Positions 56,322 through 62,623 of a DNA stretch of 64,000 bases are shown one piece after another. The translations under genes were made by a program, and so were the position numbers. Below the pieces are notes generated by a model, which did no database searches, was not told the DNA's origin, and worked only from the letters and a program-made list of their open reading frames with translations. Source of the DNA: Oceanispirochaeta sp. (GTDB taxonomy: Bacteria > Spirochaetota > Spirochaetia > DSM-2461); the NCBI GenBank assembly GCA_963663385.2, contig CAXXXD010000001.1, positions 224,001 to 288,000 of the forward strand, in the 5' to 3' direction. The stretch's first letter is position 1; each line of letters begins with the position of its first letter.

Positions 56322-56510
56322 ATCTTAATCCGCCTTTATTTGCAACTTTTTAAATTATTATATGGCTGTCAAGGGATTAAAGATGGCCGGTTCTTTTGAA
56401 TTATTGTACTATTTTATCGGGTTTAGCTAACGGGCGACGATTTATATATTACTGTTTTTGTATTATTTATATGTCAAGTAATAATAGAAACATCGTTTAA
56501 AATAATAACC

Positions 56511-56624
56511 ATGCCAAGAAAGATGACCGTTGAACTTCTGCCTATACAAAATCAGGACGATAACAATATTGGGAAAAGAATAGCAAATATTAGAAAACAG
56601 CAAGGATTTGAGAGCCATGAATGA
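56511..56624 (+). pseudogene. Truncated XRE-family HTH regulator remnant
   Basis: My translation MPRKMTVELLPIQNQDDNNIGKRIANIRKQQGFESHE*; the IGKRI..IRK..G opening of XRE helix 1 ends before the HTH. Confidence 0.55.
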
Positions 56625-56636
56625 ACTAAAGGAAAA

Positions 56637-56906
56637 TCAATCCAAATAGACATTCTTACGATGTCCGACTATTACAACGAGGATGACAACTTCGTTATCG
56701 ATAATATCGCAGATGATCCTGTAATCCCCGACTCGGTATCTCCACAGGCCTCTTTTATCACCCACAAGAGCTTTTCCCTTGGTTTGCGGGTTCTCCAGTG
56801 TGGCAACCTCATCTTCAAGATAATCAAGGATCTTTGACTGCCACTTTTTATCTATCTTATTAAGCTGCTTTTTGGCAGTGGCCGTAAAATCAACGTTCCA
56901 GGCCAA
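56637..56906 (-). CDS. Type II TA toxin, RelE/StbE family
   Basis: A.KQL.K.DK, GKAL.G...GLWRYRVGDYRIIC.I, GHRK.VY. Confidence 0.93.
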   Translation of the reverse strand: MAWNVDFTATAKKQLNKIDKKWQSKILDYLEDEVATLENPQTKGKALVGDKRGLWRYRVGDYRIICDIIDNEVVILVVIVGHRKNVYLD

Positions 56907-57102
56907 GTTCTTTTCTCATATCCTCAATTGAGGTACGGGGTTCTTCTTTTTCCAGAACGGCAAGGGCCAATAGACACTCTTCCCTTTCTTCCAGGTAGTT
57001 ATTTATGGCTTCTTTCACATAATAGCTTTTGCTCCGGCCGGTTTCTTTTGCCAGACGGGTTAATTTATCTTCAACAGACGAATCAAGGCGTACTGCCAAC
57101 AT
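56890..57102 (-). CDS. Type II TA antitoxin, RelB/CopG (RHH) family
   Basis: MLAVRL......L..LA..TGRSKSYYVKEAI..YLE; AGGAGG RBS; overlaps the toxin. Confidence 0.9.
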   Translation of the reverse strand: MLAVRLDSSVEDKLTRLAKETGRSKSYYVKEAINNYLEEREECLLALAVLEKEEPRTSIEDMRKELGLER

Positions 57103-57117
57103 TTCAGGCCTCCTTGT

Positions 57118-57134
57118 GTATAACAAGTATAACA
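57118..57134. promoter_or_regulatory. Probable antitoxin operator (direct repeat)
   Basis: GTATAACA-A-GTATAACA just upstream of the antitoxin RBS. Confidence 0.55.
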
Positions 57135-57165
57135 TTATAAGTAAAAGCAATCAATTCAGCTATCA

Positions 57166-57320
57166 ACCGAACCAGCAAAAGCAGGAGTTCGTTCCTCGAC
57201 TTCGTCTGCGGTACGACTCCGAGGTGAACAGAATGCAGCATTATCGGATCAGCGAAGAATGAGCTTCGGACAATGTCGTATTCTGTTTAGCGACTCCCGG
57301 AGCGGACTTGCGGGTTCTCA
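57166..57320. repeat. Long branched palindromic element, attC-like
   Basis: Outer GAACCAGCAA...TTGCGGGTTC; inner AACAGAAT...ATTCTGTT arm (57227-57287) flanked by CGACTCC copies. Confidence 0.45.
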
Positions 57321-57378
57321 GCCGGAAAAAATTCATATTCAGACCGGAACTTTTTCACCGGCGAAAAATAAAATTCAG

Positions 57379-57437
57379 TCATAACAAGAATATTGCTGCC
57401 GTTTCCCTTCGGTCACAGCAGAACAATGGTGTTATGA
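57379..57437 (+). repeat. Integron attC-like site (59 bp)
   Basis: TCATAAC (R'') ... ATTGCTGC (L'', one extra G) ... GCAGAAC (L') ... GTTATGA (R'); the R boxes are perfectly complementary. Confidence 0.65.
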
Positions 57438-58154
57438 TTAAAATGAAAACAATTTAAATGGAGGATTTGTATATTGTCTTAATTCTCCTGTGTAATCTCT
57501 ACGAAATGCTATGACTTTTATTAAGTAGTCCCTTTCCTTTGAAAATGGTTGTGAATATGAAAGAACTCCAAGGTCCATTTTTATATTATCAATTTCATCA
57601 ACAGATACCAACTCTGATGAATTTAATTTTGAAAGATCAATTTCAAGATTATCTTTTGAAGTCATAAATGAAAGTGCATCCTGTTGAGTTTTAACATCTA
57701 TCAAAAAGATTCCATAATAATCAGCATACTTTTTACTAATAATCTTAAGTATGGATTCATTCTTCTTTTCTACCCTAACAGGACTTGCTGGATACAAGAT
57801 AATTTTTTGATTCAAATCACTGATCTTGTATACAGAATCCTGAAGGAAGAGAAATACTGGGTTATTAATTTTAAATTCATCATCTTCTTTATTAGAAACA
57901 CTCCTTAATAAGAATTTGACGTATATCTCATCTTTTTGAGGTTCAAACTTAAAGAATTTCAAGCCAAAAATATTTAATTCCTCATCTCGAAGAATATTCC
58001 CATTCTCATCATAAGTCTTAAAATCAATTGTATAGTCCCAAATATGACTTTCTGAATCCGAATTATTAATACTTCCTTGGATTACATTACCATTAACTTT
58101 GCAACTGGCAAGAAGTAAGATTAAAAAAATCGATCGAATGCTCTTTTGTACCAT
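57438..58154 (-). CDS. Lipoprotein, putative Rhs immunity protein
   Basis: LLLASC lipobox; very AT-rich; overlaps the end of the Rhs-CT ORF. Confidence 0.65.
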   Translation of the reverse strand: MVQKSIRSIFLILLLASCKVNGNVIQGSINNSDSESHIWDYTIDFKTYDENGNILRDEELNIFGLKFFKFEPQKDEIYVKFLLRSVSNKEDDEFKINNPVFLFLQDSVYKISDLNQKIILYPASPVRVEKKNESILKIISKKYADYYGIFLIDVKTQQDALSFMTSKDNLEIDLSKLNSSELVSVDEIDNIKMDLGVLSYSQPFSKERDYLIKVIAFRRDYTGELRQYTNPPFKLFSF

Positions 58155-59235
58155 GGTCTTAAATCTTCCTTTAATGCTTTATCTATTAAGCTTGGAGATT
58201 GATGTCTAAGCTTTTCGTTTGCTTCCTTCTCAGGTAATGGGTCTCCCGATGGACTATTTGAATACAAATCATTATCAGGATTTTTTGAATCTGTAGTGTA
58301 TACTTCGTAACCGTCTAATCCTTCTGTCTTTGGATTATCATATGTTACTAAATAGTTTTTACCAAATTCTGAATTATTCATTATTTCAGCAGCATTTGGA
58401 CCAGAAAGTGCACCTACTTTTCCATAACCATTATCATGAGAATCCAAGGCTCCTAAACTTTCACCCATTCCCAGTAATATAGAACCATCCTCATATGTAT
58501 ATGTCTTATATTTGGGATCAGAATTGGGGTCAGAAATCGTTGGGCCATCCCGATGTTCTGGGTTACCATAAGGCCCTAATTGTTCTATCTTCTCTTTGAA
58601 AATTTCTTCTTCTGATTTTTCTTTCTTAGGGGCTTCATATGGTTCATTCTTCTCGGATTTATCTTCGTCATCATCATTCCCGTAATCATCACCAGGAACT
58701 CTGCTCATCCCGGATGGATCTATAAATTTAAGTGGATTGTTTGAAACATAGATAAACCAGTTTTGGCCATCCCGAGCCGGGTCCTCGGAGATAAACCGAC
58801 CGGTATCCGCATCATACCACCTGGCATTGTAGTAGTAGAGCCCGGTGTCTTCATCGAGATCCTTTCCGGTATACTTCAAATCCACATCATAGTAATCATC
58901 CGACTTCTTAACAACCGCATCACCAAAAGGCGTAGCCTCGGAAGACCAGACCTTTTCACCCGAGCATTGGTCATAAGCACGGTTGATCCCTGATGATCGG
59001 TTCCGTAATAAAGAGTCTCATCCGCTGTTACACGGGCCAGATGTCTATTCTTTAAAAAGACCGAAGTGATCACTTCGCCGGACTCCTTATCAATCTCTTC
59101 CAGGACCTTACCGGACGTATCGAATACATAATGGGTCTTCTTCCCATCCCTGTTTTCTTTCTCTACCCGGTATCCGTCTATATCATACAGGTAACGGGCG
59201 ATATTTTCCACGTTGTCACGATCAGCAAACAAACC
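58121..59235 (-). pseudogene. Orphan Rhs/YD-repeat toxin module: 5'-truncated core, 1-nt frameshift near 58962, open C-terminal domain
   Basis: Y.YD.DG.RV.K and YYGTDHQGST in one frame; GEKVWSSEATPFG..KYTGKDLDEDTGLYYYNARWYD..GRFISEDP..NW..Y..NNP..IDPSG in the next. Confidence 0.88.
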
Positions 59236-59244
59236 ATTTTTAAT

Positions 59245-59493
59245 ATGATGAAAGTTTTCTACATACAGATGAAATCTCTGGAATCCCTTCTGGATGAAGC
59301 GGAGGAGCATCTGGACAGACGGAATCTGAGGTCTGCTGAAGACTGTATCTCACGCGCTCTGGTTGTGGATGAAAGGTCTGTTGAAGCTCTGTACCTTCAG
59401 GCTGTTTATTACTCTTTGAATGGGGAAGCTGAGAAATCACAGATCTCTCTTGATACAATAAGGAAAATCGATCCAGACTTCCCGAGAAATTAA
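59245..59493 (+). CDS. Small TPR-like protein
   Basis: A...I..AL..D....EALYL.A..Y...G...K......I..DP; stop abuts the duplicated lysS terminator; start uncertain. Confidence 0.55.
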   Translation: MMKVFYIQMKSLESLLDEAEEHLDRRNLRSAEDCISRALVVDERSVEALYLQAVYYSLNGEAEKSQISLDTIRKIDPDFPRN

Positions 59494-59594
59494 AAAAACC
59501 CGATTCCTGAGAACCGGGGCCTGAATTCAAATGAATAGAGTCTAATACAATTCAAGCAACGAGAGAAACTTCTCTTTGCCGATGGTATAGAGGA
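59492..59594 (-). repeat. Displaced duplicate of the lysS 3' end plus terminator (att-like direct repeat, copy 1)
   Basis: Matches 60189-60295 apart from about 6-7 differences. Confidence 0.92.
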
Positions 59595-59601
59595 CACGGC
59601 T

Positions 59602-59820
59602 TTACTCCGTATGATTCTGGATATACTCTCTCAGAGCAGCATTCATCAATGTCTGATAACCGACTTTCTGCTCTCCTGCCAGTTTCCTGAAGTAAAGGAT
59701 AATATCGTCGTCCAGACGAATGGTTGTCGGTTTCTTGCGGGGAACGTAGAACCTTCCTCTCACTCCTTTTGAAAAATCATATTCGTCTTTTACTTCAAAC
59801 TTATCTTCCGACTGTTTCAT
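59602..59820 (-). CDS. brnA: BrnA-family antitoxin
   Basis: KDEYDFSKG.RG.F, K..TTIRLD.DII.YF, GYQT..N..LR. Confidence 0.9.
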   Translation of the reverse strand: MKQSEDKFEVKDEYDFSKGVRGRFYVPRKKPTTIRLDDDIILYFRKLAGEQKVGYQTLMNAALREYIQNHTE

Positions 59821-60091
59821 ACTGTCTCTGCTCATGGACTGTAGCCTCCCTGGCACTGATAATTCGAATAACCTCTTCATAGTTTTCATCAAAATATAAG
59901 TTGGCAACAACCAGCAGTTTTCGTTGACCGGTCAATCCTATCGTTATCCACCTTTCTTCAAAATAACTGAACCGTTCATCCATAACGGCCAGATGCAAAG
60001 GATCATCAAATACTTCTCTGGCTTCTTCAAATGAGATACCGCGTTTTTCAATATTGCTTTGATTCTTTTTTATATCCCATTCGAACCTCAT
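59801..60091 (-). CDS. brnT: BrnT-family toxin (DUF497)
   Basis: MRFEWD..KN..N..K.GISFEEA..VF.DP, E.RW.TIG, IRIISAR.AT..E...Y. Confidence 0.92.
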   Translation of the reverse strand: MRFEWDIKKNQSNIEKRGISFEEAREVFDDPLHLAVMDERFSYFEERWITIGLTGQRKLLVVANLYFDENYEEVIRIISAREATVHEQRQYETVGR

Positions 60092-60188
60092 AATTAATGA
60101 TACCCCCCCTCGTACATACATCGTCAATACATAAGTTTTAACCTTACATTACTAAATGCAGAGTAAAAGTCCGATAGAATTCAGAGTC

Positions 60189-60295
60189 AAAAAAAAGCCC
60201 CGGTTCCTGAGAACCGGGGCCTGTAATTCAAATGAATAGTGTCTAATACAATTCAAGCAACGAGAGAACCTTCTCTTTGCCGATGGTATAAAGGA
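60189..60295 (-). repeat. Active lysS 3' end plus terminator (direct repeat copy 2)
   Basis: Perfect hairpin GCCCCGGTTC-CTGA-GAACCGGGGC with a T-run on the minus strand; last ~17 codons of lysS. Confidence 0.92.
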
Positions 60296-61832
60296 AGCTG
60301 ATCAGACGGGGGCCTTTTTCCTTGGAAATAAGGGCCCGGTAAACAGCGGTAAAAAAATCCACCGATTCCAGTTCCAGTTCCTTCATCATATCGTAGACTC
60401 TGGTACCGAAATCTTTTTCATCCAGAGAATCCATATCCTCTTTGACAATAACAGCCAGACGTTTCAGAGCTTCTGTATTTTTCCCGTTCTGCTCGACCTT
60501 ACCCTCTTCGGGAGTTCTCAGGGCAAACTGGAAGTCTTCGGGAGCAAATTCCTTTACCCAGTTCCAGGCACAGACCATTCTCTGACGGAGCCTTTCCTCC
60601 TGTTCAGGCACCACATCACCCAGATAGTTCATTACCGCATCCACATCGCCGGAGAAGATCTGCAGCAGGTTGCAGAGGTGACGTATCTGAATCTGGTAGG
60701 GCATGGTCCCGGGAACCTCGCCCACCTGGGACAGTTCGTATATCCGTGCCTGTTTTTCCCACTTCTTCAGAGCTTTCTCGGACTCGGGTTTATTGAAATA
60801 AGCACGCTCGCACTTGTCATAGTCTTCATATATTTTCAGAACATCCAGATCGAAGGAAATGGCGAATTCCGTGTTGGGCCGGGTACCGGCAAACATATAC
60901 CGGATAACCTCGGGCTGATAGATTTCCAGAACATCCGCCAGGGAAATAACCTCGCCCGAAGAAGAGGAAATCTTACCGCCTCTCCCTTTGATTCTGATAA
61001 AGTCATACTGGAACGTAACGGGAGGTTCATGACCGTAAACCTCTTTCGCTGTTATCCTGGCCGTATCAAAGCTGCCGCCTTCCGAGTGGTGATCCTTTCC
61101 CGCCGGTTCAAAGTCAACCTCTTCCTGCTTCCATCTCATGGGCCAGTCGATTCTCCAGGGGAGTTTAACCGCATGGGTTGTTTTCAGATCCACCGTCTCC
61201 TCGTGACCGCATTCGCAGGTATAGCTTACACCGTAATCGCCGTCCCATCCCGTAACGGTGGTCGTATCTTTGTCACAGGCTGTACAGAAAACGGAAACCG
61301 GCATCCAGTCGTCCGCCAGAGGCGTTGTCCGGCTGGCATCCAGCTGCCGTCTGATATCTTCCTTATGAACCAGGGCTTTTTTAATTCCCTCGGCGTACTC
61401 GCTGTTCCGGTAGCGCTTGGCCTGATAGATATATTCCGGATCGACCCCTACCGCCGGCAGCAGTTTCTCCAGCTCTTTCTCATTGGCCGCAGCGTAGCTC
61501 TCCTCGCTGCCCAGTACATCGGGAACAACGACAATGGGTTTGCGCAGATACGTTTCCAGGAGCTCCTGCTTCGGCATGTTTTTGGGAACTTTTCTGAAAA
61601 CATCATAATCATCCCAGGAGTAGATAAAGCGGACTTTTTCACCCTTATCTCTCAGGGCGCGGACTACGAGTTCCACCGAGATAATCTCCCGGAAGTTTCC
61701 TATATGTACAGTACCGGAGGGGGTAATACCCGACGCACAGGTAAAGTGCTCCTTCGGTCCTCTTTCTCTGATAATTTTATCGGCGGTGATATCCGCCCAG
61801 TGTGTTGATTTCGGTTTCTTATTGTCACTCAT
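60243..61832 (-). CDS. lysS: Class I lysyl-tRNA synthetase
   Basis: HWAD, SGITPSG.VHIGN.RE, KL.WR.DWP.RW, GKDH, KISSS, GPRL..F. Confidence 0.96.
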   Translation of the reverse strand: MSDNKKPKSTHWADITADKIIRERGPKEHFTCASGITPSGTVHIGNFREIISVELVVRALRDKGEKVRFIYSWDDYDVFRKVPKNMPKQELLETYLRKPIVVVPDVLGSEESYAAANEKELEKLLPAVGVDPEYIYQAKRYRNSEYAEGIKKALVHKEDIRRQLDASRTTPLADDWMPVSVFCTACDKDTTTVTGWDGDYGVSYTCECGHEETVDLKTTHAVKLPWRIDWPMRWKQEEVDFEPAGKDHHSEGGSFDTARITAKEVYGHEPPVTFQYDFIRIKGRGGKISSSSGEVISLADVLEIYQPEVIRYMFAGTRPNTEFAISFDLDVLKIYEDYDKCERAYFNKPESEKALKKWEKQARIYELSQVGEVPGTMPYQIQIRHLCNLLQIFSGDVDAVMNYLGDVVPEQEERLRQRMVCAWNWVKEFAPEDFQFALRTPEEGKVEQNGKNTEALKRLAVIVKEDMDSLDEKDFGTRVYDMMKELELESVDFFTAVYRALISKEKGPRLISFLYTIGKEKVLSLLELY

Positions 61833-61840
61833 GGCAAGGA

Positions 61841-61869
61841 ATTATACAGACCCTTTTACCCAATGGCAA
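61841..61869 (-). promoter_or_regulatory. Sigma70 promoter of lysS (probably leaderless)
   Basis: TTGCCA-N17-TATAAT, 8 nt before the ATG. Confidence 0.72.
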
Positions 61870-61928
61870 CAGATAAGGGAGGCTCCCATACAGAAACCTC
61901 CCTCTTTGGAAAAAAATGTACCGGAAAA

Positions 61929-62498
61929 TCAGCCTCTGCGGGGCCTTCTTCCTCCGGATCTGCCCATCGGGCCATCCTGAGCCATTCCGCCCATACGTCC
62001 CATTCCATTTTCCAGAGTAAAGGTCTCGCCATCGATTTCAGCGCTCACAACGTGCAGGTAGAGGGATTCGGTTTCGTAATCCCAGGCCATACGGGCTCTT
62101 TCGGTTACATCATAACCACTCAGCTTGACACTTTCGCCGCCTTTCAGCTCAACCTGATCAAAAGCAAACCGGGGAACCATAAGAAAAACCTTTTCTCCAT
62201 TCTGTTCAATATACGGGAGCATAGCTTCCTCCAATACCAGTACACCCTCTACTTCAATGGTTTCGGGGGTTACAGGGTTTCCCTCCTCGTCGTACCAGCA
62301 GAACTCACCGGCTGCACCGCGGGGATCTCTCCGATCCATATCCCGGCCCCGGCCGAAAGTATCCTGATCCCGGGCATACGACCCGCCGGATCCTCTTCCG
62401 AATGTATCCTGAACCGGAGCCTCTTCCTTGCTGCCGCTGGCAGATAAGGCCCCTGCCGCTGTTACCACCATCAGACCAATCATCATAATCTTCTTCAT
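61929..62498 (-). CDS. Hypothetical secreted protein with G/R/M-rich low-complexity ends
   Basis: AGGAGG RBS, signal peptide, QDTFGRG twice, possibly OB-like core. Confidence 0.72.
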   Translation of the reverse strand: MKKIMMIGLMVVTAAGALSASGSKEEAPVQDTFGRGSGGSYARDQDTFGRGRDMDRRDPRGAAGEFCWYDEEGNPVTPETIEVEGVLVLEEAMLPYIEQNGEKVFLMVPRFAFDQVELKGGESVKLSGYDVTERARMAWDYETESLYLHVVSAEIDGETFTLENGMGRMGGMAQDGPMGRSGGRRPRRG

Positions 62499-62623
62499 GT
62501 CATACCTCCTGACAACTTCATTGCTTTGTTATGAAACAAACAATAAATCCGGCATATGAATAAAGTGTGAACCGCTTATGCAAAGAGTCTAAACAGATAA
62601 ACATCTCGTACCGATAGAGAAAT

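Follow-up and report, generated by a model that had tools for sequence, protein, structure and literature searches.

How does a toxin-antitoxin pair come to be enclosed, with no recombinase beside it, by two copies of a housekeeping gene's end? The question is raised by a locus in a 64,000-nt stretch of Oceanispirochaeta sp. DNA (assembly GCA_963663385.2, contig CAXXXD010000001.1, positions 224,001 to 288,000 of the forward strand), the whole of which we call the window and whose positions serve as coordinates. Behind lysS, the essential gene for lysyl-tRNA synthetase, an element of 804 nt (59492..60295) consists of a direct repeat of the lysS 3' end and, between the two copies, the genes brnT and brnA. 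The initial annotation of this DNA had offered two origins for it, a toxin-antitoxin satellite mobilised in trans or the residue of a deleted island. We favour, with evenly balanced confidence, an insertion with long target duplication via homology-anchored illegitimate recombination.

The lysS end is duplicated around brnT and brnA

Repeat and cargo lie on the minus strand, where the order in the orientation of lysS is lysS, proximal copy, brnT, brnA and distal copy. Self-BLAST of the genome aligns 103 nt at 59492-59594 with 106 nt at 60190-60295, at a spacing of 700 nt and with 99 of 106 columns identical (93.4%), the copies differing by six substitutions and one 1-nt indel. A separate repeat search returned the same unit as two blocks (59524-59594 with 60225-60295, 71 nt, 96%; 59492-59523 with 60192-60223, 32 nt, 91%), offset from each other by one base, which self-BLAST joins. 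The unit begins with TCCT at 60295, the second base of a phenylalanine codon, and runs through 16 complete lysS codons (LYTIGKEKVLSLLELY), the TAG stop, a 20-nt spacer, a hairpin and a T-run, so that the duplication and its spacing are as initially annotated, although the count of about 17 codons given there has to be lowered by one.

The edges of this unit are sharp, and alignments of the flanking DNA against shuffled sequences found no homology past the repeat ends on either side (scores of 18 against a shuffle mean of 20.7, and of 17 against 18.4). No other copy was found in the 5.3-Mb genome, nor a third copy, the mark of tandem islands, in the window or toward the URO-D gene downstream (best scores 20-28, shuffle maximum 32). 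The repeat is far beyond chance. Between its copies are 597 nt that hold, by open reading frames and Pfam, brnT and brnA only, as had been predicted, together with their likely promoter. The stop codon of brnA is 7 nt from the distal copy, and at the other end a leader of 59 nt (60131..60189, minus strand), between the lysS T-run and the promoter, has no detectable relative and no similarity to the DNA beyond the distal copy.

The distal copy is a decaying, probably displaced end of lysS

We compared the two copies as gene ends. The lysS gene itself is intact (60243..61832, minus strand) and encodes a class-I enzyme of 529 aa (Pfam tRNA-synt_1f, 2.8e-127, 1-359 of 360), 82-87% identical to the LysS proteins of 10 same-genus genomes. 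Its last 16 codons, its TAG and, behind the 20-nt spacer, its intrinsic terminator (60195..60222, minus strand; a perfect 12-bp stem and then T8, by folding and terminator scan) are all provided by the proximal copy (60190..60295, minus strand). The hairpin of this copy folds with 12 pairs at -23.9 kcal/mol (z -5.7, with 0 of 200 shuffles as good), and that of the distal copy (59492..59594, minus strand) with 8 pairs at -14.6 kcal/mol (z -2.0), weakened by three stem-breaking substitutions, all in the 3' arm. The distal copy also has a GTT to TTT change that turns valine into phenylalanine, at a position where valine is found in 10/10 same-genus lysS genes and phenylalanine in 0/19 relatives. 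The decay described in the initial annotation is therefore real in both its parts, the codon change and the hairpin damage, although the latter comprises three differences rather than one mismatch. Four of the seven differences between the copies can be polarised, and all four are derived and degenerative in the distal copy. The proximal copy is the one that completes and terminates lysS, and the distal copy is a decaying and non-functional end, probably displaced, as had been supposed; its weakened hairpin now probably ends the brnTA transcript.

The terminator is native to the genus, since the genome G007 carries a homologous one after its lysS and can be aligned through the spacer and hairpin down to 60189 (74%). 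Both copies, moreover, share synonymous codons that differ from those of all 19 relatives, and these two observations together indicate that both derive from the same species-level lineage. Their coding parts differ by one synonymous and one non-synonymous change only. At its far end, the A-run of the distal copy overlaps the TAA (59491-59493) of a convergent open reading frame with a TPR domain. The overlap agrees with the initial annotation, although what was called there a TPR gene is a 3' fragment, as we describe below.

The cargo is a complete brnT-brnA pair

The toxin gene brnT (59801..60091, minus strand) encodes a 96-aa ribonuclease of a type II toxin-antitoxin pair (Pfam BrnT_toxin PF04365, 3.9e-25, 1-77 of 77), and brnA (59602..59835, minus strand) its 77-aa antitoxin (Pfam BrnA_antitoxin PF14384, 3.7e-12; CopG_antitoxin, 1e-4). 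The genes are adjacent and co-oriented with the toxin first, both domains are full, and the brnA start, with the codon chosen by inference from homologues, overlaps the brnT end by 35 nt. Both frames are intact with conserved residues that align with 7 relatives, and the toxin is 72% identical to that of locus L066 (from a Spirochaeta bin) and 68% to those of L030 and L051. At the DNA level, similarity to the nearest cassette relatives extends only from 60130 (the promoter) to ∼59612 (the end of brnA), and it begins at 60130 with L066 and at 60129 with L053.

Sequence reading points to a likely brnT promoter at 60097..60127 (minus strand), with TTGACG (60127-60122), a 19-nt spacer, TATCAT (60102-60097) and 5 nt to the ATG. 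It was missed by our consensus scan because that scan allows spacers of 16-18 nt only. Within the spacer are the element TGTATGTAC and a G7 run (60109-60103), and the same layout with a shared TGTAyrTAC element precedes brnT in three Campylobacterota loci (window 60092-60130 compared with L053:2965-3000, L054:2960-3000 and L061:2950-3000). A promoter-like layout of TTGACa, TGTAyrTAC, a -10 box and ∼5 nt or more to the ATG is common to this spirochaete and Campylobacterota cassettes. The short distance from the -10 box to the ATG suggests a leaderless or near-leaderless brnT message. In three low-depth contigs of the public runs X6 and X8 the G-run is 2 nt shorter, which would give a spacer of 17 nt rather than 19, and such a change in length may act as a slippage switch of toxin-antitoxin expression. 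The pair most likely works as an ordinary type II system. Its transcript would start at a promoter belonging to the pair, with the strong proximal terminator keeping it apart from lysS, and would end at the weakened distal hairpin. Recombination between the repeats would delete brnTA and leave a single lysS end, and it is plausible that the toxin penalises such a loss of the cassette.

No integrase using lysS is found

The insert holds a toxin-antitoxin pair and no recombinase, in agreement with the initial annotation, which had proposed a search for a lysS-targeting integrase carrying this attachment (att) site. None was found. The genome has nine Phage_integrase (tyrosine-recombinase) matches, with 0 on the contig C1 that carries lysS; there is no tRNA or tmRNA gene near the insert, and an Rfam scan gave two sub-threshold matches only, both driven by the terminator. 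All 19 relatives have a single lysS end, and direct repeats are present at 0/25 lysS loci (the 19 relatives and six 10-kb downstream stretches). The lysS-end pattern had 0 matches in viral contigs, the 804-nt element had no blastn match in plasmid and phage collections, and a metagenome scan with a 20-nt hairpin pattern returned two stretches, both unrelated chance matches. No integrase-bearing element at lysS was thus seen in the 19 relatives, our own genome, viral contigs, plasmids or phages, an absence that is not proof. Nor was the 701-nt joint expected of excision or deletion present among 14 joints in the run contigs, which drop rare variants.

The same architecture recurs at hflX and at an fcl-like gene

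Comparison of the whole genome with itself yielded 115 pairs of local direct repeats, 40-600 nt long and no more than 8 kb apart, and we inspected the open reading frames around six of them, selected by spacing and identity. Besides lysS, one of the six is a gene tail duplicated around a small insert. This is hflX on contig C3 (G000:C3:1244742-1245646, equivalent to L091:1543-2447), where a 151-aa lipoprotein gene is enclosed by two copies of the last ∼50 codons (140-160 nt, 88% identical, 768 nt apart). Of these, the proximal one is like the functional hflX ends of nine relatives, and the distal one has lost a codon and acquired a premature stop by a GAA to TAA change. The genome G010 has the empty hflX site, because both halves of the query overlap there on the same 160 nt (G010:C56:2829-2988). 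A homologue of the lipoprotein in G010 lies at a contig end with no flanking repeat and is uninformative.

A further case was found in G047, which belongs to another genus of the same family. Here, the tail of an fcl-like epimerase gene is duplicated (locus L031 on G047:C406, 403-532 and 1288-1417) around another brnT-brnA pair, whose toxin is 45% identical to that of the window. The repeat comprises the last ∼45 codons (130 nt, 88% identical, 885 nt apart). The frame of the distal copy is open, and its stop overlaps the ATG of the next gene (a weak Fucose_pyrophosphorylase match), which marks this copy as the original operon junction. No empty site was found for this insert, the locus not being shared by the 13 other genomes of that genus. 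Neither the hflX nor the fcl-like insert has an integrase in cis.

The copies at hflX differ by 10 synonymous and 5 non-synonymous changes (pS 0.34, pN 0.05, P = 2e-4) and those at the fcl-like gene by 7 and 4 (pS 0.27, pN 0.05, P = 0.005). This mainly synonymous divergence shows that in both cases the insert imported its gene end, one of the two copies having evolved as a functional gene in a different lineage; these repeats are not fresh in-place duplications. The recurrence of the architecture at two other genes points to a general route without an integrase in cis, rather than to a lysS-specific satellite mobilised in trans, for which neither an integrase nor an att site has come to light.

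We also considered a mechanism specific to brnTA and rejected it, since only L031 among the other brnTA loci duplicates the 3' end of its upstream gene and the hflX insert has no toxin-antitoxin pair. Flanking direct repeats are present at 5/15 brnTA loci of the family and at 7/38 wider loci; those other than L031 have array-type intergenic repeats or other structures. At L030 (G051:C51, 1164-1270 and 2373-2608), a brnTA pair (68% toxin identity) lies between copies of the 5' part of a gene, the start rather than the end being duplicated; the product of this gene begins like what we take to be a HAD hydrolase. In L074 (1473-2589), from a Spirochaetales bin, a relative of brnT is cut after ∼43 codons by an opposite-strand open reading frame of 329 aa, in a stretch flanked by 68-nt direct repeats 2,150 nt apart.

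Our own genome has, in addition, four identical copies of another brnT (42% identical to that of the window; C2:1865491-1872766, C3:1635229-1645122 and C4:302774-310048), each 6-7 kb from one of three identical tyrosine recombinase gene pairs (422 and 363 aa). Two of these three places are at contig ends, similar copies in G007 are near contig starts, and the set looks like a multi-copy element of ∼10 kb. Small genes at C2:527641-529755 and C2:1393087-1393760, whose products start like those of presumed DUF559/Vsr-type endonucleases, lie between GC-rich repeats that are built from units of 15-18 nt and from short palindromes, and one DUF559-like locus has three tandem copies of a 650-nt unit. 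We rejected the DUF559 genes as further cases, their flanks being a GC-rich repeat family of their own and not copies of a target.

The distal junction differs between strains

For a comparison of strains we used contigs only, of low depth, from 4 of the 20 listed runs; parts of the window without cover in the X6, X7 and X8 contigs are not evidence of absence. The X6 strain is ∼99% identical over brnTA and lysS. Still present in it are lysS, the proximal copy, brnTA and, as far as 59544, the coding part of the distal copy. The segment 59348-59543, with the distal stop, spacer and hairpin and 144 nt of the TPR fragment, is replaced in it by 49 other letters.

Run X8 represents a more distant lineage. 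On other contigs of that run, lysS is 90% identical to ours (49 differences in 498) and the URO-D gene 92-94% (30 differences in 353; 45 in 710). On a 14.5-kb contig, brnTA is 98.6% identical (7 differences in 510 nt) and the TPR fragment 94.5% (10 differences in 181). Because brnTA is far more similar than the housekeeping genes, we conclude that there has been recent exchange of the cassette between lineages. On this contig the match to the window extends 14 nt past the brnA stop, of which 7 (TCCTCTA) belong to the repeat, and breaks at 59588; there follow 2,443 other letters, and from 59423, within the TPR fragment, the sequence matches the window again. The distal junction is thus polymorphic between strains, and the alternatively filled site that the initial annotation had hoped to see in relatives does exist, with 49 letters in one strain and 2,443 in another. 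In X7, a single low-depth contig leaves lysS at 60297, at most 2 nt from the proximal repeat boundary, and continues for at least 255 letters into unrelated GC-rich DNA. The contig may be chimeric, or the junction may be a genuine alternative.

The neighborhood downstream of lysS is accessory

From lysS to the URO-D gene extends an accessory stretch of 3.9 kb (56322..60242), delimited by its absence from relatives and by its GC profile (28-45% compared with ∼50% in the flanks). The gene next after lysS in 6/6 same-genus genomes is the URO-D gene, era or an Fe-ADH gene, the last with a histidine kinase gene, and within 10 kb of lysS these genomes encode none of the 8 accessory proteins. The stretch is accessory scrap made of unrelated pieces, two of them gene fragments.

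One fragment is the TPR frame on which the distal copy ends (59239..59493, plus strand). It retains the last ∼78-81 codons of a lipoprotein gene with CarboxypepD_reg and TPR domains and matches residues 120-200 of a protein of 204 aa in G003 (L089:3675-4289) at 56% identity. In G003 the full-length gene is the last of an operon of secretion or pilus-like type, which the window's genome lacks; neither the upstream part nor a second copy of the gene was found in the latter. Given that this frame is a gene fragment and that all six genomes show other lysS neighbors, the adjacency of lysS and TPR is not ancestral to the genus, and the initial annotation's TPR gene loses its standing as the ancestral neighbor of lysS.

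The other fragments are of an RHS/YD-repeat gene (58121..59310, minus strand), the end of the core and the C-terminal tip of a 5'-truncated gene (NCBIfam Rhs_assc_core, 2e-20; YD_repeat_2x, 0.0023), with no Pfam match. In 57438-59310 these fragments, with a divergent C-terminal tip, are followed by a low-GC frame of 238 aa with a lipoprotein-like start and no family match; possibly the tip is that of an orphan toxin and the frame its immunity gene. A second toxin-antitoxin pair, a ParE toxin with an RHH antitoxin (56637..57150, minus strand; Pfam ParE_toxin, 8.3e-17; RHH_1, 2.7e-7), lies at the URO-D side, with no flanking repeat in the search for copies of the lysS repeat.

Which route fits the locus

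In the explanation that we favour, no dedicated recombinase takes part. The incoming DNA would have been a lysS end followed by brnTA; homologous recombination in lysS would have joined one side, and an illegitimate microhomology joint at TCCTYTA, 16 codons before the lysS stop, the other. Single-crossover integration of a circularised fragment would be an equivalent route. Either way, an intact lysS end would come to stand in front of the cassette and the resident end would be displaced behind it. We infer this route from four links with the data: the DNA downstream of lysS differs in every relative, which leaves only one homologous flank; in the sister cases the gene end is seen to have been imported; the homology stops at the end of the gene's own unit; and the X8 allele has no more than TCCTCTA in common with the edge of the repeat, which is what a microhomology joint would leave. 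Of the marks by which long target duplications are recognised, all but a same-species empty site are present, the repeat being well over 30 bp and not multi-copy in genome or window, and the insert being far smaller than 20 kb and free of mobility genes. An empty site is seen for hflX in G010, and for lysS the relatives have single ends and the six same-genus genomes are without the accessory stretch.

Several points weigh against this explanation. A same-species junction of lysS, terminator and TPR, the empty site that the initial annotation had called for, was found neither in genomes nor in run contigs, and without it the target duplication at lysS is not directly shown. The two coding differences between the lysS copies are too few to tell an imported proximal end from an in-place copy. 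The microhomology comes from one depth-3 contig, whose 7 mismatches are unplaced, and the 2,443 letters that follow in X8 could hide a diverged repeat copy. The breaks of X7 and X8, one at 60297 and the other 7 nt into the distal copy, could point to a crossover at a specific site, which would speak for an integrase. The mechanism of long target duplication, too, was never established experimentally, according to the accessible part of the article describing it (PMC2853133).

A bolder form of the same idea, which we regard as doubtful, would make brnTA at lysS, brnTA at the fcl-like gene and the lipoprotein gene at hflX recombinase-free mobile units of these spirochaetes. Each would use the tail of a host gene as a homology handle, enter by a RecA-dependent single crossover and loop out via the repeats, with a toxin-antitoxin cargo penalising loss. 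If this were true, there would be a concrete mechanism, open to test, for the long-unexplained target duplications, which would then no longer be confined to restriction-modification genes.

The rival that survives best, possible though on the unlikely side, is a decayed integrative element of the kind called cis-mobilizable elements (CIMEs). A tyrosine-integrase island would have entered the lysS 3' end and supplied a substitute end, and deletions would have left brnTA, which resists loss; the repeats would then be attL and attR, possibly still usable by a related integrase in trans or in tandem. Elements at gene 3' ends that keep att after losing their recombination genes are documented in the available text of PMC7563491. 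The repeat runs from a sharp intragenic point to the gene end, as it would with a crossover at the 5' edge of the homology, and it is because the X7 and X8 breaks coincide with this edge that the explanation stays alive. The 2.4 kb after brnTA in X8 could be a tandem element, and the genome does encode tyrosine recombinases, including an integron integrase. However, none is on the lysS contig, the repeat has no other copy in the genome, and the searches of lysS loci, viral contigs, plasmids and phages described above were empty. In addition, lysS, hflX and the fcl-like gene would each need decay to an insert of 700-900 nt, and in X8 no aligned repeat copy stands between the 2,443 letters and the TPR fragment, which the contig enters at 59423.

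Improbable, in our judgment, is an in-place duplication. Here brnTA would first have been inserted plainly behind the terminator; the 104-nt lysS end would have been copied behind it later, by replication template switching or by unequal exchange, and this copy would have decayed since. The common species-level origin of the two copies, the degenerative distal changes and a divergence at roughly neutral positions that is alike in coding (pS 0.09) and non-coding parts (5 of 52) are as this explanation would have them. However, a simple tandem duplication would double brnTA, which is present once, the copies in the analogous cases diverged under purifying selection before joining, and the distal copy sits on the stop of the TPR fragment like an original gene end.

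There is very little in favor of an integron gene cassette that the genome's own integron integrase (TIGR02249, C2:1688005-1688940, 381 bits with a cut-off of 265) would have inserted at a secondary site. Relatives of brnTA do occur between repeated intergenic elements of 100-170 nt in cassette-like arrays (L053, L054, L058, L036, L037 and L041), but integron recombination does not duplicate its target, and the integrase is on another contig. Integrons recombine at a crossover consensus of G/TTRRRY, and by inspection, with no attC model applied, neither an attC nor such a site was found at either junction; the DNA after brnA is lysS coding sequence, and the flanking repeat is this sequence with a perfect terminator palindrome. 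In the arrays of L053, L054 and L058 (Campylobacterota) and of L036, L037 and L041 (same family), the elements are 650-1,340 nt apart and beside other small gene pairs. Repeats of 155-206 nt recur at C2 1673630-1687228, near the integron integrase. Finally, an assembly artefact with a collapsed or duplicated repeat, which would have undone the initial annotation, has a negligible chance, because a 26,221-nt contig of the public run X2 spans 58853-62500 and both copies with 0 differences, all sampled words of the stretch are present in five runs of two studies (one run possibly being the source sample), and the copies share no more than 28 identical nt in a row, which can be passed with 31-letter words.

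Relation to known systems

The prototype of BrnT/BrnA systems is that of Brucella, and the window's pair is like them in its toxin-first order, gene overlap and full-length domain matches. The proteins are ordinary, and it is the genomic packaging that differs. A substitute gene end is also known from e14 and phage 21 in icd of Escherichia coli, where the element supplies the new 3' end of an essential gene and the original is left as a far pseudo-end; these are, however, prophages with their own integrase, whereas the insert here is a 0.6-kb cargo with no recombinase.

The att identity of streptococcal integrative and conjugative elements (ICEs) is shorter than the 104-nt repeat described here. 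The CIMEs of streptococci range, in the available text of PMC7563491, from microCIMEs of 130-220 bp to elements of 1.2-13 kb. As portrayed there, they resemble our element in using the 3' end of a housekeeping gene, in their direct repeats, in lacking integrase, relaxase and transfer genes and in that they can be very small. The insert here likewise lacks all recombination and transfer genes. CIMEs are defined, however, by the att sites of known families of ICEs or integrative and mobilizable elements (IMEs), with which they usually stand in tandem, and in the collections searched we found no cognate integrase, ICE or IME and no lysS-using integrase family whose att sites the repeats could be, an absence that falls short of proof.

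Closer to the route that we favour is homology-facilitated illegitimate recombination. The studies of de Vries and Wackernagel in 2002 and of Prudhomme et al. in 2002 are said to have seen mostly insertion with deletion of recipient DNA. The process is described for transformable bacteria (PMC3240628, from the part of the article available) and has, like the events proposed here, one homologous anchor, which would be lysS, and one joint of short microhomology, which suits the strain-variable downstream side. It differs in that a duplicate recipient gene end would have to be left behind at lysS.

The origin of toxin-antitoxin copies outside phages, plasmids and transposons is rarely visible, and the lysS locus keeps the scar of the event. 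With two sister cases in the same family, one of them with a clean empty site, and one junction that varies between strains, it provides a compact test system, which could separate homology-anchored illegitimate recombination from a trans-acting integrase and could show whether the toxin protects the insert from deletion via the repeats that flank it.

Insertion with long target duplication of restriction-modification genes was reportedly described by Nobusato et al. in 2000. In the accessible part of the account of Furuta, Abe and Kobayashi (2010, PMC2853133), such insertions have repeats of more than 30 bp, no mobility gene and an unknown mechanism; the repeats measure 46 to ∼420 bp, far longer than the target duplications of transposons, and some overlap gene 3' ends. 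The hosts named there, mostly naturally competent species, include Helicobacter, Haemophilus, Neisseria and Campylobacter. Compared with that account, our locus differs in its toxin-antitoxin cargo, in its spirochaete host, in a repeat that is exactly a gene tail with its terminator and in the want of a same-species empty site, and the copies in the sister cases are diverged alleles rather than fresh duplicates. It agrees with it in being a small addictive unit with a genome-unique repeat, no mobility gene and an insert of lower GC. If this ordinary reading is true, the locus adds a toxin-antitoxin example to a known, under-studied phenomenon, a poorly understood route into bacterial chromosomes for small selfish genes that bring no recombinase.

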